Shown piece after piece: positions 4,938 through 47,264 of a stretch of 64,000 bases of DNA. The first letter of the stretch is position 1. Each line of letters starts with the position of its first letter. The position numbers and the translations under genes were made by a program. Origin of the DNA: Alphaproteobacteria bacterium (lineage in GTDB: Bacteria > Pseudomonadota > Alphaproteobacteria > CAAHEQ01 > UBA3637); contig SUUT01000003.1 in the NCBI GenBank assembly GCA_015062385.1, positions 76,066 to 140,065 on the forward strand, written 5' to 3'. The notes beneath the pieces were generated by a model. It was not told the origin of the DNA, made no database searches, and saw nothing but the letters and a program-made list of their open reading frames with translations.

Positions 4938-4946
4938 CTTATCTGT

Positions 4947-5120
4947 AAAAAAAGGGACGTATAAATGCAACACTTTTTTTCACATTTTGGTATTTTTTTT
5001 GATTTTAACTAACCAATTCAATAAAAACAATAATCTTTCATTTTTTTTAGAAACCGATTTTACCGATTCGAAGCGGGAAAAAAAGGTCCCTTTTATTACA
5101 CTCACTTTATAAATGCAACT
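4947..5120 (+). promoter_or_regulatory. conserved 5' cassette of the pilin-like gene family (copy 1)
   Basis: Near-identical ~175-bp sequence lies upstream of all four paralogues, in the same orientation relative to each gene (4947-5120, 12135-12308 rc, 25092-25260, 58286-58452). Confidence 0.8.
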
Positions 5121-5141
5121 TTATGATGTGAGGAGAAGATT

Positions 5142-7355
5142 ATGCGAATCAAACCGAATGAACACGGACGGAGTATGGTAGAAATCCTTGGGGTTTTGGC
5201 AATTATCGGGATTTTATCAATCGGCGGAATGGCGGGCTATCAATATGCATATTCATCATATCAAGCGGGACAGATTCAAGATGTTGTCAGTAAGGCTAAA
5301 TTATTGGCAACACAAAATAATCGTTCTTCGCATGTAAAAGAAGTACGGCGTTTTGTGGAAAATATGTTATCTAAGTATAAACCGGCTGATACGACACCAA
5401 TGGTTACACACCGTGACGGGAAATATATTGTCGATTTGTTTAACATCTCTGATTCGGTTTGTGAAAAACTCCAAAACAGACGGGATATATTCAATTCTAT
5501 GCGAATTGGTATGACACCGGAAGCGTGTACAACAGCTGAAATGAGTATGCAATTTATGTTTGACAGTATTGTCATCGGGGGAAGCAGTTCCGGGGGAGCG
5601 GAAAGCGGATATGATGACCCGAACAATCCGGATATAGGACGATGTCCGGATAAACAAGTCTGGCGACAAAAGGAAGACGGGACATATGGCTGTGTTTGTC
5701 GGCATGCATATGAATATGGAGAAGATTGTACCCGATGTGAACCGCCTCGCAGTTGGAATCAAGGTAATCAGAGTTGCCAATGTCCGGCAGATAAACCGAT
5801 ATGGGAATATGGTGTCTGTAAATGTATAGCCGATACAGACTGTCAATACAGTGGCACGGGTTTTTGTTGTGATGATACGGAACAAGTGTGTCGACAATGT
5901 GATGAAACGGATTGTGATAAAGCCAAAGGATTAACATTGGCAGATGGACGGTGTGTTTGTTCGGGACGGAAAGAATGGCGACAAGATGAGGGGGATTCTG
6001 AACCGAGTTGTAAATGTCCCGTTAATACGCCAACAGAAGCAAATTCTAAAACGTGCGAATGTCCGGACGGAAAAGATAATGTTGATGAGGACGGAGACGG
6101 GATGAACGAATGTGTCACATCTTGTCCGAGTGATACGGGATTTACGGGATTGAGAAATCGCACGACAGGGAATTGTTTATGTGATACGAGTAAAGGATAC
6201 AAGGCTGAATCGGAAACGGTCGGAGGGGTACAAACGTGCGTGTGTGATGACACACAGTCATATTATGAAAACACAAGTGGAGGATGTACAAAATGTTTTC
6301 GTACAACAAAAGAATGGTGTGAAATTCAGAATAAATCATGGTTAGATGTTGATTGCAACAGTATGAATGAAGAAGTTTGGGGATGTCGAATATATAAAAA
6401 AACATCAGAAGGTACATTTATGTATAATCCTTCCACAAAAAAATATTGTGAAGGAAAATTTGAAGTTTTAGTAAAAGATGAGAATGGTAAATTTGTATGC
6501 ACGAATGCTTGTGGTACGGCATATGGAACCGGTGGAACAGGAAAGGGCAATCGCTATAATTCAAATGGATGGTGTGGTTGTGTTCACTTTACTGTTTGGG
6601 AAAACGAAGAATGTGTTAATAAATGTAGTAATGGAATGTTATGGAATGGAAAATGTACACCTTGTCGAACAGGACACTGGACAACAGATGGTATTAAATG
6701 TAATAGTGGTTGCAATGATATTATGAGTGGACCATTCGGAACGGCATTTTCTTATCAACAATGGTTAAGAAAAACAGATAAAGCTACTTGTCATCCTAAT
6801 GAAGATGATGGTATTTCCGGTCGTGCTTTTCAATCAACGGATCCAAATTCACCGTGTTTTTACGGTAAGGGCTGTTATGTAATAAGTCAAAATTTAGCAA
6901 CATGTACATATGGTAATATTATTACGGAAGATTGCAAATGTTCAACCGGTGGGAGTGTTGGTCAATATTGTTGTTCGGCATCAACATATCCGACATCAAC
7001 GGGGTGTGTTTCTTGTCCGATAGGTCAAGTGCCAAACTCTACCCGTACAGGATGTACAATGTGTGAGCCGAACAAAATTACACAAAACGGAAAATGTGTT
7101 AAATGTGATAAAGGATATTATCCGAGCAGTCAACAAAACCGGTGTTTGGCTTGTCCGGCAGACAGAACAACCGATGAAGACGGGTTAACGTGTAGCGTTT
7201 GTGTGGATAGTTTAAAAGTGTTTAATATGATAACAAATAAGTGCGAATGTAAAAACGGTTATGAAGAAAATCCGGTTAACGGAAGTTGTATTTTGTTTGA
7301 GGATGAGATGGAAGAAAGCGAAGTATCTGAAAGTGCTGAAATATATATTAATTAA
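5142..7355 (+). CDS. giant cysteine-rich protein with type IV prepilin-type N-terminal leader
   Basis: 737 aa. N-terminus MRIKPNEHG/RSMVEILGVLAIIGILSIGG has Gly at -1, Glu at +5 and a hydrophobic helix. The rest is dense in Cys with many CxxC and CxC pairs. RBS gaggag upstream. Confidence 0.85.
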   Translation: MRIKPNEHGRSMVEILGVLAIIGILSIGGMAGYQYAYSSYQAGQIQDVVSKAKLLATQNNRSSHVKEVRRFVENMLSKYKPADTTPMVTHRDGKYIVDLFNISDSVCEKLQNRRDIFNSMRIGMTPEACTTAEMSMQFMFDSIVIGGSSSGGAESGYDDPNNPDIGRCPDKQVWRQKEDGTYGCVCRHAYEYGEDCTRCEPPRSWNQGNQSCQCPADKPIWEYGVCKCIADTDCQYSGTGFCCDDTEQVCRQCDETDCDKAKGLTLADGRCVCSGRKEWRQDEGDSEPSCKCPVNTPTEANSKTCECPDGKDNVDEDGDGMNECVTSCPSDTGFTGLRNRTTGNCLCDTSKGYKAESETVGGVQTCVCDDTQSYYENTSGGCTKCFRTTKEWCEIQNKSWLDVDCNSMNEEVWGCRIYKKTSEGTFMYNPSTKKYCEGKFEVLVKDENGKFVCTNACGTAYGTGGTGKGNRYNSNGWCGCVHFTVWENEECVNKCSNGMLWNGKCTPCRTGHWTTDGIKCNSGCNDIMSGPFGTAFSYQQWLRKTDKATCHPNEDDGISGRAFQSTDPNSPCFYGKGCYVISQNLATCTYGNIITEDCKCSTGGSVGQYCCSASTYPTSTGCVSCPIGQVPNSTRTGCTMCEPNKITQNGKCVKCDKGYYPSSQQNRCLACPADRTTDEDGLTCSVCVDSLKVFNMITNKCECKNGYEENPVNGSCILFEDEMEESEVSESAEIYIN

Positions 7356-7445: not shown

Positions 7446-8495
7446 ATGAAAAAATTATGCCTTTTATTGTTGACAACGGCTCTTTCTCTACCTGCTTTTG
7501 CCGGTTTTGTTGAAGGAGAACAAGCATTTAAAGACCAGCATTATTCGCAAGCATTTTCAGAATTTTTACCATTGGCAAATGCCGGTGATTTTCGTTCACA
7601 ATACTATGTCGGATATTTGTATGTTAACGGATACGGTGTAACACAAAATAAAAAAGAGGGATTGCGATATCTGCAAATGTCCATTGATCAAAATTATGAT
7701 ATGGCTCAGGCTTTAATGGCTTACTTATATTCAGAAGGGCAACTTGTTCCGAAAGACAAAAAGAAAGCGATTGAATTATATCAACAAGCAGCTCGTCAGA
7801 ATAATATTTCAGCCAATTTAAATTTAGGCGTTATGTATTATATGGGCGATTCGGTTGCACGTGATTATAAAACTGCATTAGATTATTTTCAAAAAGTTCC
7901 ATTGGATCAACAACCGATTGTCAGTAGATATTTAGGAGATATTTATTTAAATAATGCTACATTAAGAGATTATAATAAAGCATTATTTTATTATGAAGTG
8001 TCTGCTCGTCAAAATGATTTAAGTTCTTATTATAATTTGGGCGAAATATATAAGAAGGGTTTAGGTGTTGGGCAAGATATGAATAAAGCCATAAATTATT
8101 ACAAATATGCGGCAACACAAAATTATGGTCCGGCACAATATATGTTAGGTATTATCCATGCCAATGGTGAAGGTGTGACTAGAGATATTTATAAAGCATT
8201 TGCATGGTTTCAATTGGCAGAAGAACAAGGATTGACTATTGCCGGAGAAGCAAAAGAAAAATTAGAAAAAAATATGTCTTTATCAGATATGGACATGGCT
8301 CGCAGACAAGTTGTTTTAATTCAACAAAATGAAATGGGTAAAGTCGAACCGCCATTTCAGGATATGGTTGCAACCAAGGCAATGGAAAATGCTACCGGAA
8401 GTACTGCACTTACTGCTGCAGGAGCAACAGCCGGTGCTGTTGCAGGTAAAAAAGTAACAACTAAAAAACGAGTTTTACGTAGACGTAGGAGATAA
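7446..8495 (+). CDS. Sel1-like repeat (SLR/TPR) protein, secreted
   Basis: Signal peptide, then about seven repeats of the Sel1 pattern (A..Y..AA.QG...AQ..LG.MY..G.GV..D). Basic RRRRR tail. Confidence 0.85.
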   Translation: MKKLCLLLLTTALSLPAFAGFVEGEQAFKDQHYSQAFSEFLPLANAGDFRSQYYVGYLYVNGYGVTQNKKEGLRYLQMSIDQNYDMAQALMAYLYSEGQLVPKDKKKAIELYQQAARQNNISANLNLGVMYYMGDSVARDYKTALDYFQKVPLDQQPIVSRYLGDIYLNNATLRDYNKALFYYEVSARQNDLSSYYNLGEIYKKGLGVGQDMNKAINYYKYAATQNYGPAQYMLGIIHANGEGVTRDIYKAFAWFQLAEEQGLTIAGEAKEKLEKNMSLSDMDMARRQVVLIQQNEMGKVEPPFQDMVATKAMENATGSTALTAAGATAGAVAGKKVTTKKRVLRRRRR

Positions 8496-9751: not shown

Positions 9752-12109
9752 TTAAATTGAACTACCATTCAAAACACAGTATTGTCCATCTAATGTCCGA
9801 TTAATGCAACTACACTTTGTTTCATCTCCTCCAACATCAATCGGTAGTGGTTCATTACATGGATGACAAATACCATTTTTGTCTTCTAGTGGTGCAATTT
9901 CCGAACAATAATCTCTTATACAAGAATTTACATTTAAACTTCTATTTCCACAAATATTGGAACACCTATATGTTGAATAAATTGCTTCTTGATATACGCT
10001 TTCATTATAATTGCAGGCGTAGCATTGTCCGTCGTATCGTGCTAATGGTTTATCCGCAACTGTTGTGCCGGTAACGCCACATAGAGCCGACCACGAACTA
10101 TTACCCCATGTTCCAACGATATACCGTTTCGGACAAGCTTTTTGAGCCTCTTCTTCTACGCCTTTTACATTAACACCGGCTTCTTCTTCACAGGAATAAC
10201 ATTTTCCGTCTTTATCTTTTAATGGTTTTCCGGTTGGGCAATCTTTTAAGACACAATAACCATTTTCCATTTTTCTATTCGGACAAACAGTGCTGCATTC
10301 TCCATTAATTGCATCGGGTGATACAGCTTGGTTATAATAACAATCGTGACAAGTGCCATTTGCATCTATAATTGGTTTTGGTTCTTCTCCTTCTAATTTA
10401 GGACATTTTGGATAACAATGATTAACACTTCCGTTTGAACGTTCATTTTTACATACGGATAAGCATTTATATTGCGAATAAATTGCTTCTTGATATACGC
10501 CATCATTATAATTACAAGCATAGCATTGTCCGTCATATCGTGCCAATGGTTTATCCGCAACTGTTGTTCCGGCAACGCCACATAGAGCCGACCACGAACT
10601 ATTACCCCATGTTCCAACGATATACCGTTTCGGACAAGCTTTTTGAGCCTCTTCTTCTACGCCTTTTACATTAACACCGGCTTCTTCTTCACAGGAATAA
10701 CATTTTCCGTCTTTATCTTTTAATGGTTTTCCGGTTGGGCAATCTTTTAAGACACAATAACCATTTTCCATTTTTCTATTCGGACAAACAGTGCTGCATT
10801 CTCCATTAATTGCATCGGGTGATACAGCTTGGTTATAATAACAATCGTGACAAGTGCCATTTGCATCTATAATTGGTTTGGGTTCTTCTGCTTCTAATTT
10901 AGGACATTTTAGGTAACAATGATTAACACTTCCGCATGAACGTTCATTTTTACATACGGATAAGCATTTATATTGCGAATAAATCGCTTCTTGATATACT
11001 TGACCACTATAATTACATGCATAACATTGTCCGTCGTATCGTGCTAATGGTTTATCTGCAACCGTTGTTCCGGCAACACCACATAGAGCCGACCACGAAC
11101 TACCACCCCATGTTCCAACGATATATCGTTTTGGACAAGCTTTTTCAGCCGAATTTTCTACGCCTTTTACATTAACACCTGTTGCTGTATCACAAGTATA
11201 ACATTTACCATTTGTATCCATTAAAGGTTTATTTTCATTACTCGTTCCTTTTAATCCGCACTTTAAAACACAGTATTTTTTAGAACCGGATACTAACCGA
11301 TTGGAACAAACCGCACAATTTTCTACCATTCCCTCCACATTCACTTGTGTTTCATCATCACACGCATAACAATTTCCATCTTTATCTCTAAGTGGCTTAT
11401 CTGCCGGACAACATTTATTGTTTGAATCGCAACACTCTCCATTTTCTCCGACATGTGTACAACACAAGCCACTTACGATACTCTCTTTTAAGCAACACAT
11501 CCAAGAATTGGGATTATCATAGCTTTTGGCACATCCGCTATTTTCAGGACACATTGTTTTACATAAGCCTTGTTCACACGTGGCACATTTGCAATCATTA
11601 TCCCGATAACACCGCCATGTTTCATGTCGTTCTTCTTCCTCTATATATTTCTTTTCCGTTAAGTCATCTTTAAATTCATAGGCTAGTGTGACAGTTTCCG
11701 CTTCATTACAAATGCTTGCATCAATTTCATATTCGGTTGTGCCGACAAAAATAGAATAAGGGATTGTCCATTGTGATTTTAACAGTTGCCGACAAACACC
11801 ACTGGGAACTTCATCTAAAAACACTTCAAAGTAATCTGCGTACTGCGGGCTGATACGAGCTCGAATCGGGTAGCCCATACGGGTATGGTCACCCATTTCA
11901 TCTACGGATAATTCAATTATTCCATTCAACATTTGACGGGATAAATCAGCGACTCGAATCTGTAATTCATTCAGTGTTTCATTTGCCCGATATTTATCCA
12001 TAGCGAACCGATATCCCATTATACCACCGACACTTAATACGCCGGTAACGGCAAGCACACCAAGCATTTCTACCATACTCCGACCGATTTCATTGAATTT
12101 AACTTTCAT
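9752..12109 (-). CDS. giant cysteine-rich protein with type IV prepilin-type leader (paralogue 2)
   Basis: 785 aa. MKVKFNEIG/RSMVEMLGVLAVTGVLSVGG leader. Conserved ~140-aa head, then Cys-rich modules including internal 167-aa tandem repeats. Confidence 0.85.
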   Translation of the reverse strand: MKVKFNEIGRSMVEMLGVLAVTGVLSVGGIMGYRFAMDKYRANETLNELQIRVADLSRQMLNGIIELSVDEMGDHTRMGYPIRARISPQYADYFEVFLDEVPSGVCRQLLKSQWTIPYSIFVGTTEYEIDASICNEAETVTLAYEFKDDLTEKKYIEEEERHETWRCYRDNDCKCATCEQGLCKTMCPENSGCAKSYDNPNSWMCCLKESIVSGLCCTHVGENGECCDSNNKCCPADKPLRDKDGNCYACDDETQVNVEGMVENCAVCSNRLVSGSKKYCVLKCGLKGTSNENKPLMDTNGKCYTCDTATGVNVKGVENSAEKACPKRYIVGTWGGSSWSALCGVAGTTVADKPLARYDGQCYACNYSGQVYQEAIYSQYKCLSVCKNERSCGSVNHCYLKCPKLEAEEPKPIIDANGTCHDCYYNQAVSPDAINGECSTVCPNRKMENGYCVLKDCPTGKPLKDKDGKCYSCEEEAGVNVKGVEEEAQKACPKRYIVGTWGNSSWSALCGVAGTTVADKPLARYDGQCYACNYNDGVYQEAIYSQYKCLSVCKNERSNGSVNHCYPKCPKLEGEEPKPIIDANGTCHDCYYNQAVSPDAINGECSTVCPNRKMENGYCVLKDCPTGKPLKDKDGKCYSCEEEAGVNVKGVEEEAQKACPKRYIVGTWGNSSWSALCGVTGTTVADKPLARYDGQCYACNYNESVYQEAIYSTYRCSNICGNRSLNVNSCIRDYCSEIAPLEDKNGICHPCNEPLPIDVGGDETKCSCINRTLDGQYCVLNGSSI
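9983..11175 (-). repeat. in-frame tandem repeat, period 501 bp, ~2.4 copies
   Basis: The sequence starting ccacatagagccgaccacgaac at 10077 recurs at 10578. Partial copies flank both sides. Units are nearly identical by eye. Confidence 0.9.
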
Positions 12110-12134: not shown

Positions 12135-12308
12135 GTTGCATTTATAAAGTGAGTGTAATAAAAGGGACCTTTTTTTCCCGCTTCGAATCAGAAGAATCAG
12201 ATTTTTGAGAAAATGAAAGATTATTGTTTGAGTTGAATTAGTTAGTCAAAATCAAAAAAATTGCTAAAATGTGAAAAAAAATGTTGCATTTATACGTCCC
12301 TTTTTTTA
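12135..12308 (-). promoter_or_regulatory. conserved 5' cassette of the pilin-like gene family (copy 2)
   Basis: Reverse complement aligns with 4947-5120 along its whole length. Confidence 0.8.
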
Positions 12309-12331
12309 CGGATAAAAATACCAAAAACTTT

Positions 12332-12380: not shown

Positions 12381-13472
12381 CTATTCACAAACTTCTTTGT
12401 CATTAACAAGTTTACAAGTTTGAATAACTTTTCCGGCACTATCAAATGTTTGAGAAATTTGTTTTTTGCCATCTTCAAAAACGGTTCGTCTTAACAAAAT
12501 GCCATTTTTATCAAATGTTTGTGATAATCCGTGTGGTTTTCCGTTCCAAAATTCATATTCCTCAGATACAACATTATTAGCACTAAAAACTCGATATGTG
12601 CCGGAAATCGGTTGTTTTGTTTCTTTATCATAAACCAATCCATTTTGCTGATACGTATTTTGAGGCGTATGAATCATCGTTTTTGAGTTTAATTCAATGA
12701 TTTGTTTTGCCGTTAAAGGAACTTCTTTGCCGTCTTGTACAAGAATACCACTGATAACTTGTCCGTCATTATAAATTCTTTTTTGTGCCAATGTTCCATC
12801 TTCATTGAAATTAACACTTTCGCCATCGAGTCTATTTTTAACAAAATGCATCTCAAACTGAGGATTGCCGTTCGGATAAAATGTTTTTGAAACACCTTCA
12901 CGTTCATTGTTCACAAAATGACTAACTGAACGAATTGTTCCGTCTGCATAATATTCTCTTGCCTCGCCATTTAATAAATTATTTTTATAAAGTGATTCGG
13001 ATTTTGTTTTTCCGGAATCATAATAGTTAATCCGAGGACCATTCAACAAATCATCCTGATAAATTTCTGTTAAATACAGTTTTCCGTTTGGATAATATGC
13101 TGTAAATTGTCCGTTTAATTTGTTATTTTTATAGGTTGCTTCAGCAATTAAACGTCCGTTTTCATCATACTTTTTAAATGCCCCATCTTTAATGTTGTTT
13201 TTGAATACGATTGTATGTTCAGTTGCTCCATTTTCGAAAAATCCGACTGATTCGCCATTTAAAACTCCGTTTTCAAAGGTACTGGCTGCTCGTTTTGCTC
13301 CACTTGGAAAGGTTCGAATCAATGTTCCTGTTAAGGGTTGTTGTGTTTCTTTTAAATAAAAAATTTCTCCTTTTTTTTCAACAGCCGATGCCGAATAATC
13401 TACTGCAAGTGCAATTGAACTGAAACAAGTACTTGCAAATAAAGCAAGAGACAGAAGAACGGTATTTTTCAT
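12381..13472 (-). CDS. MORN-variant (YwqK-like) repeat protein, secreted
   Basis: Signal peptide plus about ten repeats of the pattern Y..NG.....(Y/F).(N/D)..(L/K).G. Confidence 0.75.
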   Translation of the reverse strand: MKNTVLLSLALFASTCFSSIALAVDYSASAVEKKGEIFYLKETQQPLTGTLIRTFPSGAKRAASTFENGVLNGESVGFFENGATEHTIVFKNNIKDGAFKKYDENGRLIAEATYKNNKLNGQFTAYYPNGKLYLTEIYQDDLLNGPRINYYDSGKTKSESLYKNNLLNGEAREYYADGTIRSVSHFVNNEREGVSKTFYPNGNPQFEMHFVKNRLDGESVNFNEDGTLAQKRIYNDGQVISGILVQDGKEVPLTAKQIIELNSKTMIHTPQNTYQQNGLVYDKETKQPISGTYRVFSANNVVSEEYEFWNGKPHGLSQTFDKNGILLRRTVFEDGKKQISQTFDSAGKVIQTCKLVNDKEVCE

Positions 13473-14413: not shown

Positions 14414-14712
14414 AAAAAAAGACAGGGTATCCTGTTGCTGGGAACCCTGCAAACCCCACCGCCCCGCTCAATATGGAGACGGAATTAATGGCCAGAAGCT
14501 ACTCAAATTAAGCAGCTAAAGCGGCCGGAGCAAAATTATCATTTGCGTTTATATTTTCAGCCCGATAACGGTGGTACAATACCGGATACAAGAGAAAGCC
14601 TTTATTATGCGTGTCGATCCTATTTCACCCCCATTAGCTTATTTGGTGGAGGTGTCGGGTACCGCCCCCGAGTCCACAGACATCTATTCTGCTTTTCGTT
14701 TAGCATCATAGC
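14414..14712 (-). ncRNA. ssrA: two-piece (circularly permuted) tmRNA
   Basis: On the minus strand the T-arm TCGGG-GGCGGTA-CCCGA and 3' acceptor strand CACCTCC-ACCA end at 14644. An 11-nt linker follows. GGGGGTG at 14632-14626 pairs with CACCTCC. The tag ORF GCA AAT GAT AAT TTT GCT CCG GCC GCT TTA GCT GCT TAA (14546-14508) encodes ANDNFAPAALAA. A terminal hairpin with T7 ends at 14414. The 5' end is approximate. Confidence 0.85.
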
Positions 14713-14791
14713 CGATTAATATCGGCAAATATTATTATAACAATATTTTATTTGAAAAACAAGTTTTATATGCGATTAATGTATAGAAAAA

Positions 14792-17512: not shown

Positions 17513-19435
17513 TTATTTTAATAAACCGATTTGTACAAGATATTTTTTCCAATCAGCTATTTCCAAATAGGTATTAGGAATATAAATTCCGTTTGGATAT
17601 GTTGGACTATATAAGATATTAAAAGAAATTCCGTTTGTGGAATTATAGTAGTGGGATAATTTTTTACCAATACTATTTGTCTGATCAGCCGTCATCAATA
17701 AAAGATTTTCATTTTGTACAAATGATTCTGTCGGATAGAGGTATTTTGCACTTAACTGATTAGCCATACAGGTAATACATGGATTTTTCTGAACGGAAAC
17801 GAAAACACTTTTATTATCTTGAAGTGCAGTTTTCAATGCCGATTCGGTAAAATTATTTTGAGGTGGAAAAAGTGTTAAATAAAGTAATAAACTTGTCCAT
17901 CCCAGCAGTATAATTAAAGGCAAACGAATAAGTTTATTTAACGGTTTTTGAGCTTGTTCTAATGCTTGAAAAAATTGTGGACATTTTTGGAGTAGTAAAA
18001 AGGGAAGAATACAACAAAATCCCCACCAAGCGGATAAAACAAATGCCATAATCGAATATCTCGGAAATGTTAAAAAATATTCATATAAGTATGGATACGG
18101 CATTAAAAGCAAAAAAACAAATGCTTTTTTAATCTGAACAAACGGATGCCATAATAAATACAAGAGAATTCCGAGTTGAACAATTAGCAAAATCGGATGT
18201 AACATTATATTACCAAGAGGTACATTTGCATACAACAGAATCCCCAAAACTAACGCAACTAAAACACCTAATTGTTTAATAATTTTAATAATTTTCTTTA
18301 ATTCTTGATGGTTTTGAGGACGAATTGACCAAAATAACAAATAAAAAACAGAAAAGAACAGCAATATAAAACCGCTTAACAAGGCATTGAACCAGCTAAA
18401 CATCGGCGGAATTGTTTCAAAAGGTTTTTTATCCGGAAAAATTGTTGTTTCATACCAATTATCAGGCGTTAACAGTTTTAACATTAGCGGTTGCGTAAAC
18501 TCAATGTTTGTATCGGACTGGATAAGTACAATAGCTTTATTTTTGTGAATAACTTTTTTTTGAATTTGAAAAGAGAACTCATTATCAATTTTAAGTTCAA
18601 AATCCTTGATATTATGTGGATAAGTCACAATTATCTGTAATTGATTGTTAATCCCATGAGCAAGTACTTGTACATTTTGAGGTAAAGGTGTTGTTGATTT
18701 ATTTATTTCACTTAAAATAGCCGGACAAATATCCGTTTGATACCCTTTTCCGTTATCAACCGTTAATTGATATAATTGTGTGTGTGTAATACAATTATTT
18801 TGTTTACAAGCTGTTAAAGCAATTTCTTTTTCCATATGAAACGGTTTAAGCGGATTTATTAATTGATAAATAATCGGAAATAAAACGGATGATTCGTACG
18901 TTTGTGAATGCTTACGATTCAAACGTAGCGGGTACAAAATGGTTTCTTGCTCTATTGCCGTTGATGTCTGCAACGGAATATTTGGTTTTTTTAAAGACCA
19001 ATCAGGATTTAATTGAACATGTAAGGCGGTAATTAACGTATTTTGATTGTTTAAATTACCCATACAAGAGACAAGACCCGCTGAACCGAAATCAAAGGAG
19101 TGTTTTTTGCCCAAGCCCTTTTCTCCAGTTAAAATACCGGCATCCTTTGTTCCTAAAAAAAACAGAGTATATAAATTCATATTTTCCGGTTTATCGACAA
19201 GAGATATATCTGCCGGCGTTTGATTTTTAGCCATTTCGATTTTTTTGCTATTGAGGTGTTTTAAAAACTCTAATTTCTCCATCCAGCCTTGTGGTTGCTG
19301 TTCGGATGTTGTCACATTTACGGTGTTTGTTAGCGGAACTTGTGGTGTGTTTTCTGTTAACACATCATTTTCGGCAAATAAATTTGTCGGTAAAAATGAT
19401 AAAATCAGAAAAAAAAGATAAAAAACGCACTTCAT
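17513..19435 (-). CDS. multi-pass membrane protein with C-terminal thioredoxin-like CxxC domain (DsbD/ScsB-like, tentative)
   Basis: 640 aa. Signal peptide, periplasmic N-domain, ~6-8 TM segments, C-terminal VSVQKNPCITCMANQ thioredoxin-like motif. The canonical DsbD TM cysteines are not obvious. Confidence 0.4.
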   Translation of the reverse strand: MKCVFYLFFLILSFLPTNLFAENDVLTENTPQVPLTNTVNVTTSEQQPQGWMEKLEFLKHLNSKKIEMAKNQTPADISLVDKPENMNLYTLFFLGTKDAGILTGEKGLGKKHSFDFGSAGLVSCMGNLNNQNTLITALHVQLNPDWSLKKPNIPLQTSTAIEQETILYPLRLNRKHSQTYESSVLFPIIYQLINPLKPFHMEKEIALTACKQNNCITHTQLYQLTVDNGKGYQTDICPAILSEINKSTTPLPQNVQVLAHGINNQLQIIVTYPHNIKDFELKIDNEFSFQIQKKVIHKNKAIVLIQSDTNIEFTQPLMLKLLTPDNWYETTIFPDKKPFETIPPMFSWFNALLSGFILLFFSVFYLLFWSIRPQNHQELKKIIKIIKQLGVLVALVLGILLYANVPLGNIMLHPILLIVQLGILLYLLWHPFVQIKKAFVFLLLMPYPYLYEYFLTFPRYSIMAFVLSAWWGFCCILPFLLLQKCPQFFQALEQAQKPLNKLIRLPLIILLGWTSLLLYLTLFPPQNNFTESALKTALQDNKSVFVSVQKNPCITCMANQLSAKYLYPTESFVQNENLLLMTADQTNSIGKKLSHYYNSTNGISFNILYSPTYPNGIYIPNTYLEIADWKKYLVQIGLLK

Positions 19436-25043: not shown

Positions 25044-25091
25044 TATGCAAGTACCAAAAGTCTTTTTTATCTGCTTAAATTTTCTATCTGC

Positions 25092-25260
25092 AAAAAAAGG
25101 GACGTATAAATGCAACACTTTTTTTCACATTTTGGGATTTTTTTTAATTTTAGATAAATTATTCAATTAAAACAACAATCTTTTATTTTTTAAAAAATTT
25201 GATTTTTCCGATTCGAATAGGGAAAAAAAGGTCCCTTTTATTACACTCACTTTATAAATG
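25092..25260 (+). promoter_or_regulatory. conserved 5' cassette of the pilin-like gene family (copy 3)
   Basis: Aligns with 4947-5120. Confidence 0.8.
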
Positions 25261-25282: not shown

Positions 25283-27199
25283 ATGCAATCTAAAATCAAT
25301 GAAATCGGTCGGAGTATGGTGGAAATGCTGGGAGTACTTGCTGTTATCGGTATTTTAAGTGTTGGGGGCATAATGGGTTATAAATTTGCCATGCTTAAAT
25401 ATCGTGTCAATGAAACCGTCAATGAACTCAATATACGGACAAATGAAATTTATCAATATTTTTCCGTTCAGGAAAATGAAAATTTACCGACACAAACGGT
25501 CGGAGCAGAAATTAAAATGTCACTTGGAGAAACAATGCGAACCGGTTATCCGATAAGTGCATTTGTTTCAGCCAATAACGAATCGTTTTTTGAGTTGGAA
25601 CTTCAACAAGTTGAAACAGAAATGTGTCAACAGTTGATGCAAATTTATAAGGTGCCGGATGTTATATTCGTTAACGAACAACAATATTTAAATGATTTAT
25701 CATTATGTGGCAACAAAGATTTTGTTAAATTAAATTTTATTTATAATAAGACATTCAACAAAAAAACGGCATGTGATAATCGCAGTGAATTTGATTCGAT
25801 ATCTTTAAAATGTCGATGTAAAGGGGATTCCTATTTGGATATTGTGAGTAATACATGTAAATGTGCCGGTGGAGAAATATGGAGTTCAAGTGAGCAAAAG
25901 TGCATTGTTTCTGTCTGTGAAGAAGGATATTTTGAAACACAACAAGACGGATGCCAACCGTGCAACGGTTCGGAAACTTATCTGATATCCAAAAATCAAG
26001 AGCAATATTGTAATGCATGTTCGCCAGAAACAAAGAGAGTTGTTTATAAATATGCAAGTGGTTTGTTATATTGTGCAGTTAAGTGTCCACAAGATATGTT
26101 TTGGGACGGGAATCGCAGAAAGTGTCAATTATGTACATTTTCCGATTTTGGTGGCAGTTATGATGAGATATCAAAAGCCGAATGTTTAGCTTGTTCAAGT
26201 ACTTCACGAGAATTATTTCGAAAAACTGAATGTCGTTTATCCGATTGGTGCCCATCATCTGAGCGAAAATTCTTTGGTGTAGATGAACAATCTACAAACA
26301 TGCGGTCTTATTTTAAATGTATGTCTTGTGATACAATAAAACAACTGTTATTACAAGGAGATTCCAAGGCAATAGCAGCGTGTAATGCTTGTGTAGATGA
26401 AAATAACCAATCAAACAGACAAGTTATTAATGATTATTGTGTTAAAAAAACGTGTTCCGATGGAGAATTTATGGGAGCTGATGGTATTTGTTATTCTTGT
26501 TCAGATGAACGGTCTGTTGCTGTTTTGCCTCAACAGGAAGAAGCGTGTACATCATCTGCTTGTCAACGCAGGGTTGTAAACGGATATTGTCAAATACAAG
26601 ATTGTCCATCGGAAACACATATACGATTATCAAATGGTGATTGTTATTCTTGTTCGGAAGAGAGAGGATTCATCAGTACCGAAGAAGAGTGTGATAAGTG
26701 TGGCAATAAACGGGGATATGTTATTGCTCACAATGGTCAGATTGGATATTGTCGGATTAATAATTGTGCTAAAGGAAGTAGTTATCCTTATAATCTTCCA
26801 GATAATTTGAATTCCTGCATTAGTTGTCAAAAGCCTTGGTATACCGGGGAAACGGCATATAGTATGGAATATTGTGAAGCCTGTGGAGATGGATATTATG
26901 TTTCCGGTAATGTTTGTTATGGACCTGATTTTTGTCAGACGGGTTCGCAACTGATATCAAACAGTGGTACAGAATGTATTGATTGTACTGTTGTTGAAAA
27001 AATTTATGTTGGTATGCATGAAAAACATCGTACATATAGTGACAATTGTGTAACTGTCAATCGTTTTATTGTTGAAGATTATTCTTATCGGTGTGATACG
27101 AGAGAAAATATACCGGTCTTTTTAGAGGCTGATAAAAAATCCTGTATCAATTGTCGCATACGTTCCGTTGTAGATGATGTTTGTGTGTTGACACAATAA
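25283..27199 (+). CDS. giant cysteine-rich protein with type IV prepilin-type leader (paralogue 3)
   Basis: 638 aa. MQSKINEIG/RSMVEMLGVLAVIGILSVGG leader. At least 13 CxxC pairs (CQPC, CNAC, CQLC, CLAC, CMSC, CYSC...). Confidence 0.85.
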   Translation: MQSKINEIGRSMVEMLGVLAVIGILSVGGIMGYKFAMLKYRVNETVNELNIRTNEIYQYFSVQENENLPTQTVGAEIKMSLGETMRTGYPISAFVSANNESFFELELQQVETEMCQQLMQIYKVPDVIFVNEQQYLNDLSLCGNKDFVKLNFIYNKTFNKKTACDNRSEFDSISLKCRCKGDSYLDIVSNTCKCAGGEIWSSSEQKCIVSVCEEGYFETQQDGCQPCNGSETYLISKNQEQYCNACSPETKRVVYKYASGLLYCAVKCPQDMFWDGNRRKCQLCTFSDFGGSYDEISKAECLACSSTSRELFRKTECRLSDWCPSSERKFFGVDEQSTNMRSYFKCMSCDTIKQLLLQGDSKAIAACNACVDENNQSNRQVINDYCVKKTCSDGEFMGADGICYSCSDERSVAVLPQQEEACTSSACQRRVVNGYCQIQDCPSETHIRLSNGDCYSCSEERGFISTEEECDKCGNKRGYVIAHNGQIGYCRINNCAKGSSYPYNLPDNLNSCISCQKPWYTGETAYSMEYCEACGDGYYVSGNVCYGPDFCQTGSQLISNSGTECIDCTVVEKIYVGMHEKHRTYSDNCVTVNRFIVEDYSYRCDTRENIPVFLEADKKSCINCRIRSVVDDVCVLTQ

Positions 27200-27385: not shown

Positions 27386-27598
27386 TTAACTGCAATATTT
27401 TTGCCGACATACGTCTTGTGAATAATGCCATTCATTCATACATGTATTCATACAATTATCATCTAAATTTTTAAAATATAATCCAATTGCAAAAGTGATT
27501 GTTCCAATGAGTGCAAAAAACATAAGAACAAAACTAAATAAAATAGTAAAAAACAATGGAATATTCTTATGGATTGTACTTTTGACTGATGAGGTCAT
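27386..27598 (-). CDS. small single-TM protein with C-terminal Cys motif (putative partner/immunity of the SAA-like protein)
   Basis: 70 aa from the internal ATG (MTSSVKS...) with RBS aaggaaa. TM helix, then CMNTCMNEWHYSQDVCRQKYCS. Overlaps the 3' end of the upstream gene by 32 nt. Confidence 0.6.
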   Translation of the reverse strand: MTSSVKSTIHKNIPLFFTILFSFVLMFFALIGTITFAIGLYFKNLDDNCMNTCMNEWHYSQDVCRQKYCS

Positions 27599-28278
27599 GA
27601 CAATTTCCTTGTGGATATGTTCGTCCGATGTTTCTTCCATAAATATTAGCCTCCATATCAGCATCACTTGCTTGTGATGTGTTTTCATTAAATAATACAT
27701 CATAACTTTCTTTAAGTCCAGATAATATTTGCGAAACTTTTTCTGATTTACTACCATGTTGTGCCATCAAACAATTTATCATAGCATGTTTGTATTTGTC
27801 ATTTACATTCATTGGTTCATATTGGTTGTTATAATTAATAATATTTTTAAAACTGTTAATATATCCATTTGGGTTTTGGATGTCTGAATTAATATATCCT
27901 AATCCATAACCTAAATAATATCCCGGATTAATAGATAAATCATTTGTTTTTAAGTTTCTATTATTTGGCAATATTGTAGAATTAAATTTTTCTGTATTTA
28001 GATTTTTTGTTTTATATTCGCTTCCACTGAATCCATAATTATTTTTCAGGTGAAACACTCCAAAAGTCAGAGCCATATTGTTTATAATTACCTGTTATAC
28101 CCATATTGCGTTGTTGTTGCATGAGTTCTTCTTCCCGTTTAACTCGTTTGTCTTGAGATTCTACTTCTTCTCTTGTTGTAAATTGAGAATGATCTACACC
28201 ATAAGTATCATATCCGTTCTCTAAAGTTCTGTATCCCAAGGGGGATTGGTAGTCGTTATAAAATTGATTCTCTGTCAT
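27567..28278 (-). pseudogene. SAA-like domain protein, frameshifted paralogue
   Basis: ORFs 28039-28278 and 27567-28076 are two frames of one gene. The first 75 aa match 29433-30113 with two substitutions. A 1-nt longer A-run (T5 on + at 28042-28046) breaks the frame. The C-terminus has DKYKHAMINCLMAQHG...SDADMEANIYGRNIG. Confidence 0.75.
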
Positions 28279-29432: not shown

Positions 29433-30113
29433 TTACTTTATAATATACTGTTCCAGCATGTCTTCACAATTTCCATTTGGATATTTTGTTCCGATTAATC
29501 GCCCGATTTTATTAGCGTAATTATCAGCATTACTTTCATCTACAGTATTTTGTTTAGTTATATATATATCGCTTAATTCTTTTACATCTGAGAACATTGA
29601 TGCTAAATTATGCCCACCATAACCATATTGTGCACTCTTGCAGTTGAGCAATGCATGCTTAAATTTATCTGAAATGTTTTTGTTCTTTAGATTTTTATAT
29701 CCATTTACTATATTTATTCCTCCGGCAAGTGTTGATTTAACAAACGGCAAAGGGGATTGATATTCGGGTTTTATTTCTCCACCTTCTCGTGCAACAATAT
29801 CTTCATAAATGTGCTTCCCTTCTTGTTCGGTTTCCCAATATCTTGGCTTTATTTCACTTCCCTCGAATCCATAGTTATTTTCGGGAGAGGCACTCCAAAA
29901 GTCAGAGCCATATTGTTTATAATTACCCGTTATACCCATATTGCGTTGTTGTTGCATGAGTTCTTCTTCCCGTTTAACACGTTTGTCTTGATATTCTACT
30001 TCTTCTCTTGTTGTAAATTGAGAATGATCTACACCATAAGTATCATATCCGTTCTCTAAAGTTCTGTATCCCAAGGGGGATTGGTAGTCGTTATAAAATT
30101 GATTCTCTGTCAT
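29433..30113 (-). CDS. serum amyloid A (SAA)-like domain protein
   Basis: 226 aa, no signal peptide. The C-terminal ~75 aa (SDKFKHALLNCKSAQYGYGG...FSDVKE...SNADNYANKIGR) align with the vertebrate SAA core ([20 protein letters not shown]...ISDARE...SLADQAANEWGR). Confidence 0.7.
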   Translation of the reverse strand: MTENQFYNDYQSPLGYRTLENGYDTYGVDHSQFTTREEVEYQDKRVKREEELMQQQRNMGITGNYKQYGSDFWSASPENNYGFEGSEIKPRYWETEQEGKHIYEDIVAREGGEIKPEYQSPLPFVKSTLAGGINIVNGYKNLKNKNISDKFKHALLNCKSAQYGYGGHNLASMFSDVKELSDIYITKQNTVDESNADNYANKIGRLIGTKYPNGNCEDMLEQYIIK

Positions 30114-33955: not shown

Positions 33956-35641
33956 TTACTGAGTGGATAAGATATTTTGGATAGTTCTTCCAACATAACT
34001 TTTATTACCATACAGTCTTTGACCAATTCCTCTATCTGCCCAACCACAAAGTGCATTTTGGTATTCTGCAGGTATTCTCACTTCTACTGCCTTTGTTTCA
34101 AATGTATGTCTAAATGAATGGAAGACCTTATCTGAACCTGTTATGTCTATTTTATCTAAATATCTTCCAAACCAATGTTGAACAGAATTACTATAACGTC
34201 CCCGTTCTATTTGTGTTAATTCGCTAAATAACTTTTTGGCTTTGTTTTTTCTTTGAAACTCTACATATCTTAAAAATCCTAATTCGATTATTTGAGGGTG
34301 AATGGGTATAATTCTTTCAGATGTCTTGTTTTTAACTGATTTATCTTTGTCATTCCCATGAATAGATATACAGGGTATCCCTTTTTTACTCACAATATCT
34401 GTTACATCTAATTGGCAGATTTCATTTAAACGACATCCATGATATAATGCAATTATCGGAACCCAAAATTTGGCTTGATTGTTTCTCATCTTCGGACTGG
34501 GATATGTCTTGGGATTAAATATCTTATGTAGTTCCGAATTATCAAACGGGTTTCTTGCTTCTTTTTCTATCTTAATCGGTTTATCTATGTAATCATTCAT
34601 ATTGTTTTCAATAATGTCTTCTCGAACTGCATATCTCATAAAGTTGGTAAAGACATTCAGATATCCTTTTATTGTTTGCTTCCCTAATGCTTTATTTTCT
34701 GATTTCGTTAATATCTCTTTTATGGTTTTACCTTTTTCTATCTCAGTATGCCATTTTTTAGGAACTTGATAAATCTTTTCACTTAATTTGCGACAGTCTT
34801 GTTTTGTTATTTCTTCTATATATTCTCTTCCCATAATTAAAAAGGCTAATTTAATTGACAAATACATAGTCCTGATGCGTTCGTCTGGTATTCCTTTTAA
34901 ATTCTTTTTATTCTGAGCATACTTTTTAAAGAACTTTTCCCAATGGGTTTTGGTCATGGATTTAGTCAGACGTTCTGTGGTCTTCATGTTATCATAACTT
35001 TTAAGTAAAGTTTTAACCTTGGGATTGCTTGGGTTATAAGGTTTGTCTTTCTTAATTGCTTTGATACTTTTTTCTGCATATCTTTCTAATGCAGAAACAT
35101 GACTGCCAAAACTTTTAAACCATTCATACCCATCTTTTGCTTTGTCTTCTAAACCCAGTTCAATCTCTTTTTCCTTTAACTTGGTATAGGTTGTGCGAAG
35201 AGTAATATTGGCTTGAGAGTTTTCAACCAAACTCCTTAAATAGTCCAATATCATTTGAACCATTAACTCTTTTCTTTGTTCTGTGGGTAGTTTGATGTCT
35301 TCAATGGTTTTCTTGCCTTCTACAATATTCTCAGCATTTTCTTCCAAAAAGTATTGAATTTGACTAAGTCTTGCCAGCAATATCTTATCAACATCATTTT
35401 CATCCAGAACAACTTTGTTTTCTTTGTTAATTTTCATAATAATATCCTCAAATACATCCATAAATGTTTGTAAATGAGCAATTTCTGTTCGCCATCTGGC
35501 AACAGCAAGTTTGTAATCTGATGTGTCTAATGTATAACAAATCTCTTTACATTTTGCCAATGTCCAATACTTTCTGGGTACACCGACCCTAAAATAAAAA
35601 GCACGACCTTTGACAATCAGTCCCGGATATCTTTGAACCAT
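33956..35641 (-). CDS. tyrosine-type site-specific integrase
   Basis: 561 aa. N-terminal GRAFYFRVGVPRKYW arm-type domain. Catalytic region LYHGCRLNE (Arg), HSFRHTF (H-x-x-R), C-terminal Tyr region. Confidence 0.85.
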   Translation of the reverse strand: MVQRYPGLIVKGRAFYFRVGVPRKYWTLAKCKEICYTLDTSDYKLAVARWRTEIAHLQTFMDVFEDIIMKINKENKVVLDENDVDKILLARLSQIQYFLEENAENIVEGKKTIEDIKLPTEQRKELMVQMILDYLRSLVENSQANITLRTTYTKLKEKEIELGLEDKAKDGYEWFKSFGSHVSALERYAEKSIKAIKKDKPYNPSNPKVKTLLKSYDNMKTTERLTKSMTKTHWEKFFKKYAQNKKNLKGIPDERIRTMYLSIKLAFLIMGREYIEEITKQDCRKLSEKIYQVPKKWHTEIEKGKTIKEILTKSENKALGKQTIKGYLNVFTNFMRYAVREDIIENNMNDYIDKPIKIEKEARNPFDNSELHKIFNPKTYPSPKMRNNQAKFWVPIIALYHGCRLNEICQLDVTDIVSKKGIPCISIHGNDKDKSVKNKTSERIIPIHPQIIELGFLRYVEFQRKNKAKKLFSELTQIERGRYSNSVQHWFGRYLDKIDITGSDKVFHSFRHTFETKAVEVRIPAEYQNALCGWADRGIGQRLYGNKSYVGRTIQNILSTQ

Positions 35642-43621: not shown

Positions 43622-43624
43622 GTG

Positions 43625-44395
43625 TTATTTTCCTTTTAAACAACGAAAAACAGTAGAAAAAAATATCTTTACTTTCTGGTTTTGATTACTTTTTTTTGCT
43701 TGAATTATTTCTTCACATCTTTTTATAGATTTTCTCCCTTTTTTCGATAAAGGGTAATAATCTGAACATATATGATTTTTTAATTCAGGCCAAAAATCTT
43801 TATCATCTATTCCCCATTCTTCTTTTTGACAACACAACCATTCTTCTTCAGGAGCTTCAGGACATTCCCCCATTCCAAATTCTTCTTTTAGTGGAAACTT
43901 ATTCCAAATAGTTTCTTTTTTTAAAGAATTTTGCATAACAGCCTTTTTAAAAACATCATTTACTTTCATAAAAGATGTTTGTTTTTCAATTCGTTCTTCC
44001 TTTTCTTTTAGTTTTTTATTATATTCTTCAATGTATGCATCTTTTTCCCTTTGTTCTTTTCCAAAAAAAGATAAATCGCCTTTTCCTAATAATTGAATTT
44101 CTTTGTCTGTTAGATTTTTTTTATCCGTATAATAATTGCCATTGCCAATAATGTTTGGTCGTTCATAGTATTCTTTACAATGCATACAAAAAGCACATTT
44201 GGTACAGTTTCTTTTTTTGCGTACAACTTTCTTTATGTTGTTATAACCGATTAAAGTGATCAAAAAAACTATTACAGAGATAGTAAGAACAATTAAGGTA
44301 TAACTTACTATTTTGTATTCAAAATTTATATAATGGTTTTCTAAAAAAACAATTTTATTAAAAATCCAAGCAAAAACACTATTTCTTATTCCCAT
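43625..44395 (-). CDS. hypothetical membrane-anchored Cys-motif protein, translationally coupled to mod
   Basis: ATG lies 2 nt after the mod stop. One TM helix, then CTKCAFCMHC, then a further Cys-containing C-terminal region. Confidence 0.55.
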   Translation of the reverse strand: MGIRNSVFAWIFNKIVFLENHYINFEYKIVSYTLIVLTISVIVFLITLIGYNNIKKVVRKKRNCTKCAFCMHCKEYYERPNIIGNGNYYTDKKNLTDKEIQLLGKGDLSFFGKEQREKDAYIEEYNKKLKEKEERIEKQTSFMKVNDVFKKAVMQNSLKKETIWNKFPLKEEFGMGECPEAPEEEWLCCQKEEWGIDDKDFWPELKNHICSDYYPLSKKGRKSIKRCEEIIQAKKSNQNQKVKIFFSTVFRCLKGK

Positions 44396-44396
44396 A

Positions 44397-46034: not shown

Positions 46035-46046
46035 TTTCTTGTTCCT

Positions 46047-46484
46047 TTACATATATTCATTTTCAATTTGTTGAGATAACTCTTTAAAAGTTTGCAATTT
46101 ATCACACATATCTTTTGCATCCAACAAATTATCCACTCTATCTAACAAATTATAAATTCTTTGAAGTTTTTGATTGTCTTTTAGTTTTTTAAGGGAGTAG
46201 TCCATTGGCATTTGAAAATAGGAACTATCTGAAAAATCAGAAACAAGTCGTATTCTATCTGGCACACCGAACTGCCTAAACATATCATTTGTTGCTTGTC
46301 GCTCTTCAGGAGACATTTTAAAGTTAATTTCTTCCTTTTGCATCATTTTCATACAAGCCATAATAAGTGTCTTAAAATATGGTGAACAATTTTCCATCAA
46401 GTATCCCATAGCAAGATTCCTCAACTTTCTCATGATACTGATAAATTTCTCTGCAATTTTATTTTCTAACTCTTTATTAGTCAT
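46047..46484 (-). CDS. hypothetical protein
   Basis: 145 aa, helical. Overlaps the upstream ORF by 8 nt. Confidence 0.5.
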   Translation of the reverse strand: MTNKELENKIAEKFISIMRKLRNLAMGYLMENCSPYFKTLIMACMKMMQKEEINFKMSPEERQATNDMFRQFGVPDRIRLVSDFSDSSYFQMPMDYSLKKLKDNQKLQRIYNLLDRVDNLLDAKDMCDKLQTFKELSQQIENEYM

Positions 46485-47253: not shown

Positions 47254-47264
47254 CCTTTTTGTTG

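Follow-up and report, generated by a model that had tools for sequence, protein, structure and literature searches.

Modular pilin-like genes behind putative invertible promoter switches in an uncultured alphaproteobacterium

Four oversized pilin-like genes and their common upstream cassette

We analysed a 64,000-nucleotide stretch of alphaproteobacterial DNA (GenBank assembly GCA_015062385.1, contig SUUT01000003.1, positions 76,066 to 140,065 of the forward strand), which we call the window. It is low in GC (~33%) and carries four genes for large, cysteine-rich proteins that start like type IV pilins, each preceded by a 157-bp cassette bounded by inverted repeats. The best explanation that we find for this arrangement, and in our judgement a probable one, is a multi-locus repertoire of alternative pilin-borne adhesins in which every gene is gated by an inverton. 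The four genes are as follows:

5142-7355, + strand: gene 1, 737 aa; leader, residues 1-9; pilin head to about residue 150; Cys-rich tail, residues 151-737 (66 Cys)
9752-12109, - strand: gene 2, 785-aa modular pilin-like protein; tail with 501-nt (167-aa) repeats
25283-27199, + strand: gene 3, 638-aa modular pilin-like protein with 52 Cys
58479-60536, + strand: gene 4, 685-aa modular pilin-like protein; 31-aa leader; tail of teneurin-type EGF repeats

These open reading frames (ORFs) and their common N-terminus had been picked out in an initial annotation made from the DNA letters, and all four are found where it placed them. In an alignment of the four proteins, residues G9, R10, S11, M12, V13, E14, L16-A20, G23, L25, S26, G28, G29, G32 and Y33 are invariant, and a degenerate DNA probe for this motif matches the window exactly four times, compared to 0.03 matches expected from shuffles. 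The proteins had been described as oversized and indeed they are, although the lower end of the range is 638 rather than 637 residues (638-785). The leader comprises 8-9 residues in genes 1-3 and 31 in gene 4. Each protein contains exactly two cysteines in its first 150 mature residues and 52-71 overall (8.2-9.6%). All four are labelled 'hypothetical' in the uncultured Alphaproteobacteria metagenome-assembled genomes (MAGs) that carry exact copies of them.

The cassettes upstream of these genes are laid out as follows, where orientation A is the one found in the window and orientation B is its opposite:

4944-4958, + strand: locus 1, distal inverted-repeat arm, TGTAAAAAAAGGGAC; 15 nt, 93% complementary to 5086-5100
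4959-5085, + strand: locus 1, inner segment, 127 bp, orientation A, putatively OFF
4965-4970, - strand: locus 1, putative -35-like hexamer TTGCAT, directed away from gene 1
5086-5100, + strand: locus 1, gene-proximal arm, GTCCCTTTTATTACA
5097-5102, + strand: locus 1, putative -10-like hexamer TACACT, across the outer end of the proximal arm and the flank
12154-12310, - strand: locus 2 putative switch, orientation A; distal arm 12296-12310, inner segment 12169-12295, proximal arm 12154-12168, TACACT 12152-12157
25089-25245, + strand: locus 3 putative switch, orientation A; distal arm 25089-25103, inner segment 25104-25230, proximal arm 25231-25245
58284-58440, + strand: locus 4 putative switch, orientation A; distal arm 58284-58298, inner segment 58299-58425, proximal arm 58426-58440

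All four window copies of the element have the same build, two 15-nt inverted repeats around a segment of exactly 127 bp, and at locus 1 the proximal arm ends 41 nt before the ATG. We propose that the functional core of the repeats is approximately AAAAGGGAC/GTCCCTTTT. A cassette common to the four genes had already been noted, and two probes for it, 22-29 nt long, each match the window exactly four times (0.00 expected), upstream of the genes and never inside coding sequence. The ~190 bp upstream of each gene are 86-93% identical among the four copies, whereas coding identity is lower, at 66-79% in the first 96 nt past the predicted cleavage site and ~62% in the rest of the head.

Pairing between the arms is maintained well beyond the window. 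Over 34 cassettes, 85.9% of arm positions pair, with ~100% in the inner 9 bp, compared to 38-59% in slid controls. One arm position is G:C in 28 of these cassettes, T:A in six and broken in none, and the arm covariation score of 0.098 (0.053 for shuffles) was reached by 0 of 500 shuffles. In a fifth family member, just outside the window start, the repeat cores are altered on both sides, to CGTAC/GTACG. Scanning one genome per species for the cassette pattern gave 28 cassettes, every one of them in the sister MAG RGIG7750, which stems from a water-buffalo rectum sample. Most stand before a pilin-like gene (186 to 987 aa), and 22 of the 28 lie in orientation A beside a pilin gene. When metagenome contigs were scanned with the inner-segment pattern, 15 loci were returned, one of them a true cassette (L012); we discarded the remaining 14 as chance A-rich matches. 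We also considered a sigma-54 promoter, suggested by the GG-N10-GC in GGGACGTATAAATGCA, and rejected it: the GG belongs to the inverted-repeat core and is GT or TA in other copies, and there is no conserved enhancer region upstream.

Some cassettes depart from the usual setting. Those at L053:2166-2328 and L050:1-90 have no pilin-like gene on either side and may be orphan switches or remnants. In a distant MAG (GCA_017464685.1), a perfect 23-nt inverted repeat surrounds 207 bp upstream of a 210-aa family member (L027:9718-9970), with TTGCAA abutting the gene-proximal arm. A second assembly of this member (L028) diverges inside the 207-bp segment and is without the left arm, a difference that may reflect a rearrangement or an assembly chimera. 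The 23-nt repeat suggests that switches with unrelated repeat sequences are present in other genera.

The inner segment occurs in both orientations

What had been described as a promoter cassette turns out to be more than a promoter, since related genomes carry the element in both orientations. The clearest case is L033 in RGIG7750, the orthologue of window locus 3, where fabD, a 216/222-aa gene, the cassette and the pilin gene are found. Both flanks of L033 align to locus 3 in the forward direction, whereas the 127-bp core aligns only as its reverse complement (score 199 vs 65), and the inversion breakpoints coincide exactly with the repeats. The opposite orientation is also found at L047 and, in five independent samples, at the P0183 locus upstream of gap-pgk; relative to the gene, the segment is reverse-complemented at L033, L047 and L064-L068. 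Among ~39 distinct loci in the clade, ~32 are in orientation A, three in orientation B and four undetermined.

These comparisons make it very likely that the cassette is an invertible DNA element, in which a site-specific recombinase would flip the 127-bp segment at the inverted repeats. Two observations tell against this conclusion: every contig of the window species is in orientation A, and no single population showed an identical locus in both states. The evidence for inversion therefore comes from comparisons between related genomes and loci, and not from reads.

The single orientation in all contigs of the window species would also suit a conserved promoter or 5' untranslated region that is not an active switch. 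On this explanation, the repeats are regulator sites or an RNA stem, the opposite copies are old fixed rearrangements, and gene conversion among paralogues keeps the cassettes alike. The RNA folding z-score is -2.4, a modest value, with a long-range stem in the minimum-free-energy structure, and mosaic cassettes show that gene conversion occurs. However, the inverted state begins and ends precisely at the repeats and leaves both flanks in place, and three independent loci are flipped in two further genomes. Furthermore, transcription of the stem in orientation A would need a promoter ahead of the distal arm, where none is conserved, and an alaS terminator abuts cassette 1. Compensatory changes between the arms are no less expected of a recombination site than of an RNA stem, and an Rfam search with the cassette gave no family near its gathering score. 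We consider this explanation improbable.

We hold it to be still much less probable, and indeed hardly credible, that the cassette is a miniature inverted-repeat transposable element with an outward promoter, inserted either way upstream of pilin genes. Its terminal inverted repeats, its length of ~157 bp and its many copies per genome are what such an element would show, as are the few copies without an adjoining pilin gene (at L053 and the first cassette of L050). However, the distance to a family member's start codon is the same for nearly every copy, and the gene-proximal flank (TACACT…TATAAATGCAAC…Shine-Dalgarno) is co-conserved with the cassette. No target-site duplication is apparent around the arms, and at the orthologous locus the orientation differs in the inner segment only.

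The initial annotation had compared the layout of these genes to a variable surface-protein repertoire, and an invertible element agrees with that comparison, as orientation switching is a standard phase-variable mechanism and the family has many members. It is larger than the four genes first described, with at least eight members in or beside this region and in co-occurring relatives, and 28 cassettes in one sister MAG.

A promoter that would be assembled by inversion

The conserved hexamers of the cassette point to a split promoter, whose -35 element would lie inside the segment and whose -10 element would have a fixed place beside the gene, within the proximal repeat's outer half. TTGCA(A/T) is found at one end of the segment in 27 of 30 cassettes. 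The gene-proximal arm together with its flank reads TACACT in 18 of the 30, TATAAT in three and TATACT in two (23/30 together), and the distal arm is degenerate at the positions that match the proximal -10. After inversion, the spacing from TTGCA(A/T) to the -10 is exactly 17 nt in 29/30 cassettes, and all three orientation-B loci read TTGCAA-17-TACA(C/G)T. In orientation A, the -35 position holds GGGAAA, and we therefore read A as OFF and B as ON, an assignment that we think is probably correct on these sequence features. In orientation B, the -35 and -10 elements, 17 nt apart, would form a sigma-70-type promoter ~40 nt upstream of the start codon and the gene would be ON, whereas in the window orientation the -35 would be ~140 bp off and facing the other way, leaving the gene OFF. 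With this polarity, the four window genes and the two neighbours just outside the window are probably silent in the consensus sequence. Such uniform silence of the window genes is expected if each cell expresses one or few of ~25-30 alternatives.

One feature of the segment speaks against this assignment. A weak promoter, TT(G/A)ACT-N18-AA(T/C)AAT, lies inside it and faces the gene in orientation A, and the polarity could therefore be the reverse of our proposal. Orientation A would then be ON through this intra-segment promoter, ~100 nt upstream of the start codon, and the rarer B would be OFF; most family members would be co-expressed, and the switch would serve to silence individual genes. 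A consensus scan finds TTAACT-18-AATAAT at 5005-5034 facing gene 1, with TTGACT there in copy 2. The AA(T/C)AAT hexamer is well conserved in the cassette alignment, and orientation A is the majority state everywhere. However, such sites are as frequent in shuffled sequence (1 found, 1.1 expected), and the candidate -35 varies widely among copies (TTAACT, TTAGAT, TTGATT, TTCAAA, TTATAT). Reversed polarity also does not explain why the outer half of the proximal arm alone is conserved as TACACT/TATAAT, 17 nt from the inverted TTGCA(A/T). Finally, the P0183 locus is in orientation B in five samples, with a degenerate distal arm and possibly locked, and its gene is intact, encoding 730 aa. We regard reversed polarity as unlikely and retain B as the probable ON state.

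The N-terminal head resembles type IVb pilins

Behind its leader, each protein carries a predicted cleavage site for prepilin peptidase, G|RSMVE: Gly occupies position -1, Glu position +5, and a hydrophobic helix of ~20 residues follows. Pfam assigned no family at E ≤ 0.01 to the gene 3 head on its own. A phmmer search with this head found 2639 relatives with the same G|RSMVEMLGVLA N-terminus, and most of these are ~220 aa long and carry PF08805 PilS_N and PF05307 Bundlin. We aligned the four window heads with 28 database relatives, among them phmmer matches at E ≤ 1e-11: G(-1), E(+5) and the two cysteines are invariant throughout, and among the 32 sequences PilS_N is matched by 14 (best 4e-19), Bundlin by 11, TcpA by three and N_methyl by four at E ≤ 0.01. 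An exhaustive profile search returned 6671 cluster representatives at E ≤ 1e-3. Of the best 150, ~35 exceed 300 aa and ~18 exceed 600 aa, so oversized members are common in the clade.

The predicted structure of the head leads to the same group of proteins. The AlphaFold2 model of the gene 3 head (pLDDT 81, pTM 0.72) shows a 58-residue N-terminal helix (8-65) followed by a sheet of four to five strands. Its top Foldseek matches in the PDB are exclusively type IVb pilins (probability 0.97-1.0, TM 0.31-0.56), namely CofA (9iuf; probability 1.0, TM 0.56), TcpA (8uhf; 1.0) and PilS of S. Typhi (3fhu; 0.97). A sequence search of the PDB with the head profile gave weak matches only, to the geopilin N-terminal helix (E 0.34-0.98).

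A number of details sit less well with a pilin head. The initial annotation had called the N-terminus a textbook class III signal; the Gly at -1, the Glu at +5 and the hydrophobic helix bear this out, but 'textbook' goes too far. Arg at +1 is unusual, the three leaders of 8-9 aa are short for type IVb, and the Pfam N_methyl model (PF07963) stays sub-threshold, with 11.7-11.9 bits (E 0.18-0.2) against a cut-off of 21.2, and scores in genes 1 and 4 only. On the window proteins themselves, all Pfam pilin models are below threshold, and the Foldseek E-values of the head are modest, 4e-3 at best. A +1 residue other than Phe does fit type IVb pilins, and a leader as long as theirs (about 15-30 aa) is present in gene 4 alone.

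Since relatives of the head match PilS_N, Bundlin or TcpA and the predicted fold is that of CofA, TcpA and PilS, we conclude that these are very probably modular type IV pilins, proteins of a known kind, with a divergent type-IVb-like head and grafted tails. This agrees with their first description as pilin-headed, oversized and modular.

Unrelated cysteine-rich tails follow the common head

After the common head of ~150 aa, the proteins diverge into different Cys-dense architectures, as had been proposed; the four tails are unrelated and contain 8-10% Cys. EGF-like modules had also been suggested, and profile searches bear these out for gene 4 alone, whose tail matches PF25024 EGF_TEN (4e-23, 82.6 bits vs a cut-off of 65) and, also above threshold, PF23106 (EGF_Teneurin; 1e-22, 9 matched stretches). 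For genes 1-3, no pilin or Cys-rich-domain model of Pfam was matched. The sole match above its cut-off in these three genes is a borderline one to TFIIIC_sub6 in gene 2 (23.8 bits vs 22.7), which has no separately matched stretch and is biologically implausible.

The tails of genes 1-3 comprise 480-630 aa and are predicted to be arrays of beta-hairpin modules. In the AlphaFold2 model of gene 1, the tail consists of strings of short beta-hairpins (pLDDT 70-89). Its homologues number 22 among 5.8e9 proteins, all in the same MAG clade and with several paralogues per MAG. We considered whether this tail could be a eukaryotic EGF, TNFR, furin-like or meckelin Cys-rich domain; the fold matches are non-significant (best E 7e-3, TM ≤ 0.11), and we therefore claim no specific family. 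In gene 2, the 501-nt repeats, found by a self-offset scan, are 88-97% identical at the nucleotide level; Tandem Repeats Finder reported no repeat there, presumably because the 501-nt period is past its 500-nt limit. A strain variant of this gene (P0140, 618 aa) is without exactly one 167-aa unit, and the repeat number is thus polymorphic.

Tails are also exchanged between heads. In P0191, a gene-1-type head is joined to another tail, and a further one, with lectin-like motifs, is found in P0194. Each tail may be a ligand-binding adhesin module.

Several further observations concern these proteins. A 1.9-kb JGI contig holds a variant of gene 3 (P0001) that agrees with it fully for 92 aa before a frameshift, 117 aa in total; either a frameshift allele or an error in sequencing could account for this. 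Downstream of some family genes lies one for a small, secreted protein that contains Cys (134-150 aa; L058:17824-18255, L064:9047-9451) and shows the motif …GTYC.S.V.MNWWSAHAWCD..GMKL…. It may be a partner of the pilin-like protein, much as CofJ is paired with CofB in type IVb pili. Within the window, a 640-aa polytopic membrane protein (17513-19435, - strand) has a weak C-terminal thioredoxin-like match (E 0.004). It may be a DsbD/ScsB-like disulfide reductase, relevant to the folding of proteins with 50-70 Cys.

Pilus machinery and display

The initial annotation had found no pilus, type II secretion or Tad genes in the window, and we also saw none when ORF translations were read and unclear ORFs were scanned with Pfam and NCBIfam. 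The 10 kb beyond each window end hold more family members and no pilus machinery. Two of these members flank the window, 371 and 467 aa in length, each with its own orientation-A cassette:

L005:7362-8477, - strand: 371-aa family member, ~1.5 kb before the window start
L058:16424-17827, + strand: 467-aa family member, ~5.5 kb past the window end

A lectin/DUF1566-like motif, MNWWDAKSACNAL, is present in the shorter of the two, the 371-aa protein.

If these proteins are processed and assembled as pilins, the short leader would be cut at G|RSMVE and the head would be closed by one disulfide. The adhesins would then sit at the tip of a type IVb-like pilus, as do CofB, TcpB and PilV. With ~25-30 loci per genome, most of them OFF, a cell would display one or few adhesins, and the population would switch among them by phase variation. 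We offer display on a pilus as a tentative proposal, which we rate slightly short of an even chance.

The gene content that we searched does not favour display. Neither the window nor ~0.69 Mb of sequence from relatives, redundant in part, yielded a prepilin peptidase, an assembly ATPase, a platform protein or a secretin, and motif scans of this 0.69 Mb, a small part of any genome, for the GspE/PilB Walker A, the A24 GxGDxK and the secretin motif gave a PriA-like helicase as their sole match. Moreover, the genes are scattered among housekeeping genes, as first described, and every examined family member is an orphan in such surroundings. Together with the Arg at +1 and the sub-threshold N_methyl scores, this would suit an organism with no type IV pilus, in which the pilin-like N-terminus is only a membrane anchor or export signal. 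The proteins could then be uncleaved periplasmic signal-anchor proteins, or substrates or pseudopilins of a type II secretion-like system, and NCBI names one relative 'type II secretion system protein'; the switches would still gate their expression. However, strong conservation across thousands of relatives extends to G(-1), E(+5), the alpha-1 helix, the disulfide closure of the head and the type IVb major-pilin fold, more than a simple anchor would seem to require. There are also small family members (145-230 aa) that have this N-terminus and resemble major subunits, and the search for machinery covered only a small part of the genome. We consider it unlikely that the proteins are not pilus subunits.

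A variant cassette at L043:4370-5465, which has an additional leader of ~110 nt, is followed by a tandem pair of small pilins (186 and 163 aa) that both end in …FKQS. These two are candidate major pilus subunits.

Recombinase candidates and recombination between cassettes

The window contains one small tyrosine recombinase that could be considered as the invertase:

55488-56069, + strand: tyrosine recombinase, 193 aa, catalytic domain only, about the size of FimB/FimE; PF00589 4e-19; candidate invertase

This protein is sub-threshold to NF007370 'tyrosine-type DNA invertase' (E 8.5e-10) and to XerA/C/D. It has 274 homologue clusters at 70-93% identity, and in relatives it lies among SNF2, Ank, DUF3768 and resolvase genes. 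A second tyrosine recombinase, 198 aa and likewise with the catalytic domain only, is encoded just upstream of the window (L005), and some strains are without it. Against NF007370 the two score 38.6 and 45.7 bits, far from the cut-off of 221. The 193-aa protein is conserved, but its neighbourhood in relatives is mobile-element-like, and we do not assign it as the invertase; it remains a candidate only. No serine recombinase was seen in the window. It counts against our explanation that we identified no invertase and that both nearby small tyrosine recombinases lie in mobile-element contexts.

The cassettes may also mark sites of larger rearrangement. In another sample (L059:5400-5960), gene 4 keeps its proximal arm, but the inner segment and the entire left flank differ from those in L058: mlaA-mlaC stands in place of the ruvA side, and the junction shares an identical stretch of ~40-60 nt. 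This arrangement is either inter-cassette recombination, that is, a large rearrangement, or an assembly chimera. Many MAG contigs break shortly after cassette 1. Recombination between cassettes would reshuffle loci and keep the cassettes alike.

Other features of the window

The 193-aa recombinase belongs to an island (40724-56411) that starts with an SNF2-type helicase (40724-43621) and ends at tRNA-Thr(CGT) (56336-56411). It also holds an Ank protein and, as labelled from translations only, a methylase-like ORF (44397-46034), a 904-aa helicase/restriction-like ORF (49384-52098) and a toxin-antitoxin-like pair. A resolvase gene of a related alphaproteobacterium adjoins two hsdS (Methylase_S) genes in opposite orientations (L061:1-2028, L062:1-2029), an arrangement that looks like a phase-variable specificity switch of a type I restriction-modification system. 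Another island in the window, low in GC, ends at a 561-aa integrase (33956-35641) and includes two proteins with Pfam matches to the SAA (serum amyloid A) domain (27567-28076 and 29433-30113, - strand). Eukaryote-like repeat proteins are encoded at 7446-8495 (Sel1), 12381-13472 (MORN) and 52777-53238 (Ank). The richness of these genomes in Ank, Sel1, MORN and SAA-like proteins hints at an intimate association with eukaryotic cells. A two-piece (permuted) transfer-messenger RNA of the alphaproteobacterial type, with the tag peptide ANDNFAPAALAA, lies at 14420-14766 (- strand, 231 bits); this RNA and the exact protein copies in Alphaproteobacteria MAGs identify the window as alphaproteobacterial.

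Discussion

Here, we describe a family of genes that combine a pilin-type head with modular tails and lie behind cassettes whose inner segment is found in both orientations. We favour a repertoire of alternative pilin-borne adhesins, gated at many loci by invertons. A more far-reaching version is possible, although we hold it with less conviction: a 'distributed shufflon' of ~25-30 complete alternative tip-pilin genes, each behind a split-promoter switch, with a single recombinase serving all of them. In such a system each tail would be a different eukaryote-like disulfide-rich module (EGF, TNFR/furin-like or lectin-like) in a host-associated lineage, and recombination between switches would also rearrange the chromosome. 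It would be, to our knowledge, the largest inverton-controlled protein repertoire in Alphaproteobacteria, and the first there for type IV pilins.

The initial annotation recognised no described system in this arrangement, and we likewise found no description of the combination at such a scale in the searchable literature; the DeepInverton survey makes no mention of pilins. Modular pilins and invertible promoters are each known. If our explanation is correct, the system would be a bacterial counterpart to the variant-surface-protein systems of eukaryotes, with a pilus as its scaffold, and it would explain assembly breaks at these loci in gut and rumen Alphaproteobacteria. The 157-bp switch is compact and highly conserved, and both the recombinase and the split-promoter logic are directly testable. 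The Cys-rich tails may form a pool of unexplored, lineage-restricted binding modules.

Modular pilins consist of a pilin module with grafted C-terminal modules, for which tip display and adhesion have been proposed, and a survey counted >1,200 of them in 264 architectures (Raynaud et al. 2021, PMC8179133). The proteins described here have the same plan of an N-terminal pilin module and a grafted C-terminal module as PilB and PilC of S. sanguinis, CofB and TcpB. They differ in that their grafted parts are disulfide-rich EGF/TNFR-like arrays, mostly without a database signature, and that the head is divergent with Arg at +1. Furthermore, a genome holds dozens of paralogues and not just one or two, every one of them has its own putative invertible switch, and a place at the pilus tip and a role in adhesion are proposals.

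Invertible promoters at multiple loci are known from Bacteroides fragilis, where Mpi acts on the capsular polysaccharide promoters, and from Clostridioides difficile, where RecV acts on cwpV, flgB, cmrRST and pdcB. Those systems resemble ours in their unlinked loci with similar inverted repeats around a short promoter segment, presumably served by one recombinase, and in the combinatorial surface variation that would result. In contrast, the cassettes here are found in an alphaproteobacterium as ~25-30 near-identical switches, conserved over the whole 127-bp segment and dedicated to one protein family, with a promoter that is apparently split. The fimS switch of E. coli is a single 314-bp element that controls a chaperone-usher pilus by ON/OFF phase variation, with the promoter entirely inside and FimB and FimE as recombinases. 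Like the cassettes here, it has short inverted repeats around a promoter segment upstream of a pilus subunit gene, and small catalytic-domain tyrosine recombinases are also found near our loci. Here, however, there are many switches with an apparently split promoter, and the nearby recombinases fall below the invertase cut-off and lie in mobile-element contexts.

Two systems switch type IV pilins themselves by inversion. In the shufflon of R64 and S. Typhi, Rci-mediated inversion switches the C-terminus of the type IVb minor pilin PilV, which is thus, like the proteins proposed here, a type IVb pilin-borne adhesin with a variable C-terminal part that is changed by site-specific DNA inversion. 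We do not identify our loci as a shufflon of the Rci/PilV type, as the cassettes lie only upstream of genes and each variant is full-length with its own head. In the shufflon, C-terminal exons at a single clustered locus are swapped onto one constant gene, whereas here complete genes, scattered around the chromosome, have their own heads and putative promoter switches. In Moraxella bovis and M. lacunata, Piv inverts a 2-kb segment within the pilin coding region, which yields two major pilins. This, too, is inversion-based switching between alternative type IV pilins, but the segment that would invert in our loci is a 127-bp non-coding one upstream of each gene.

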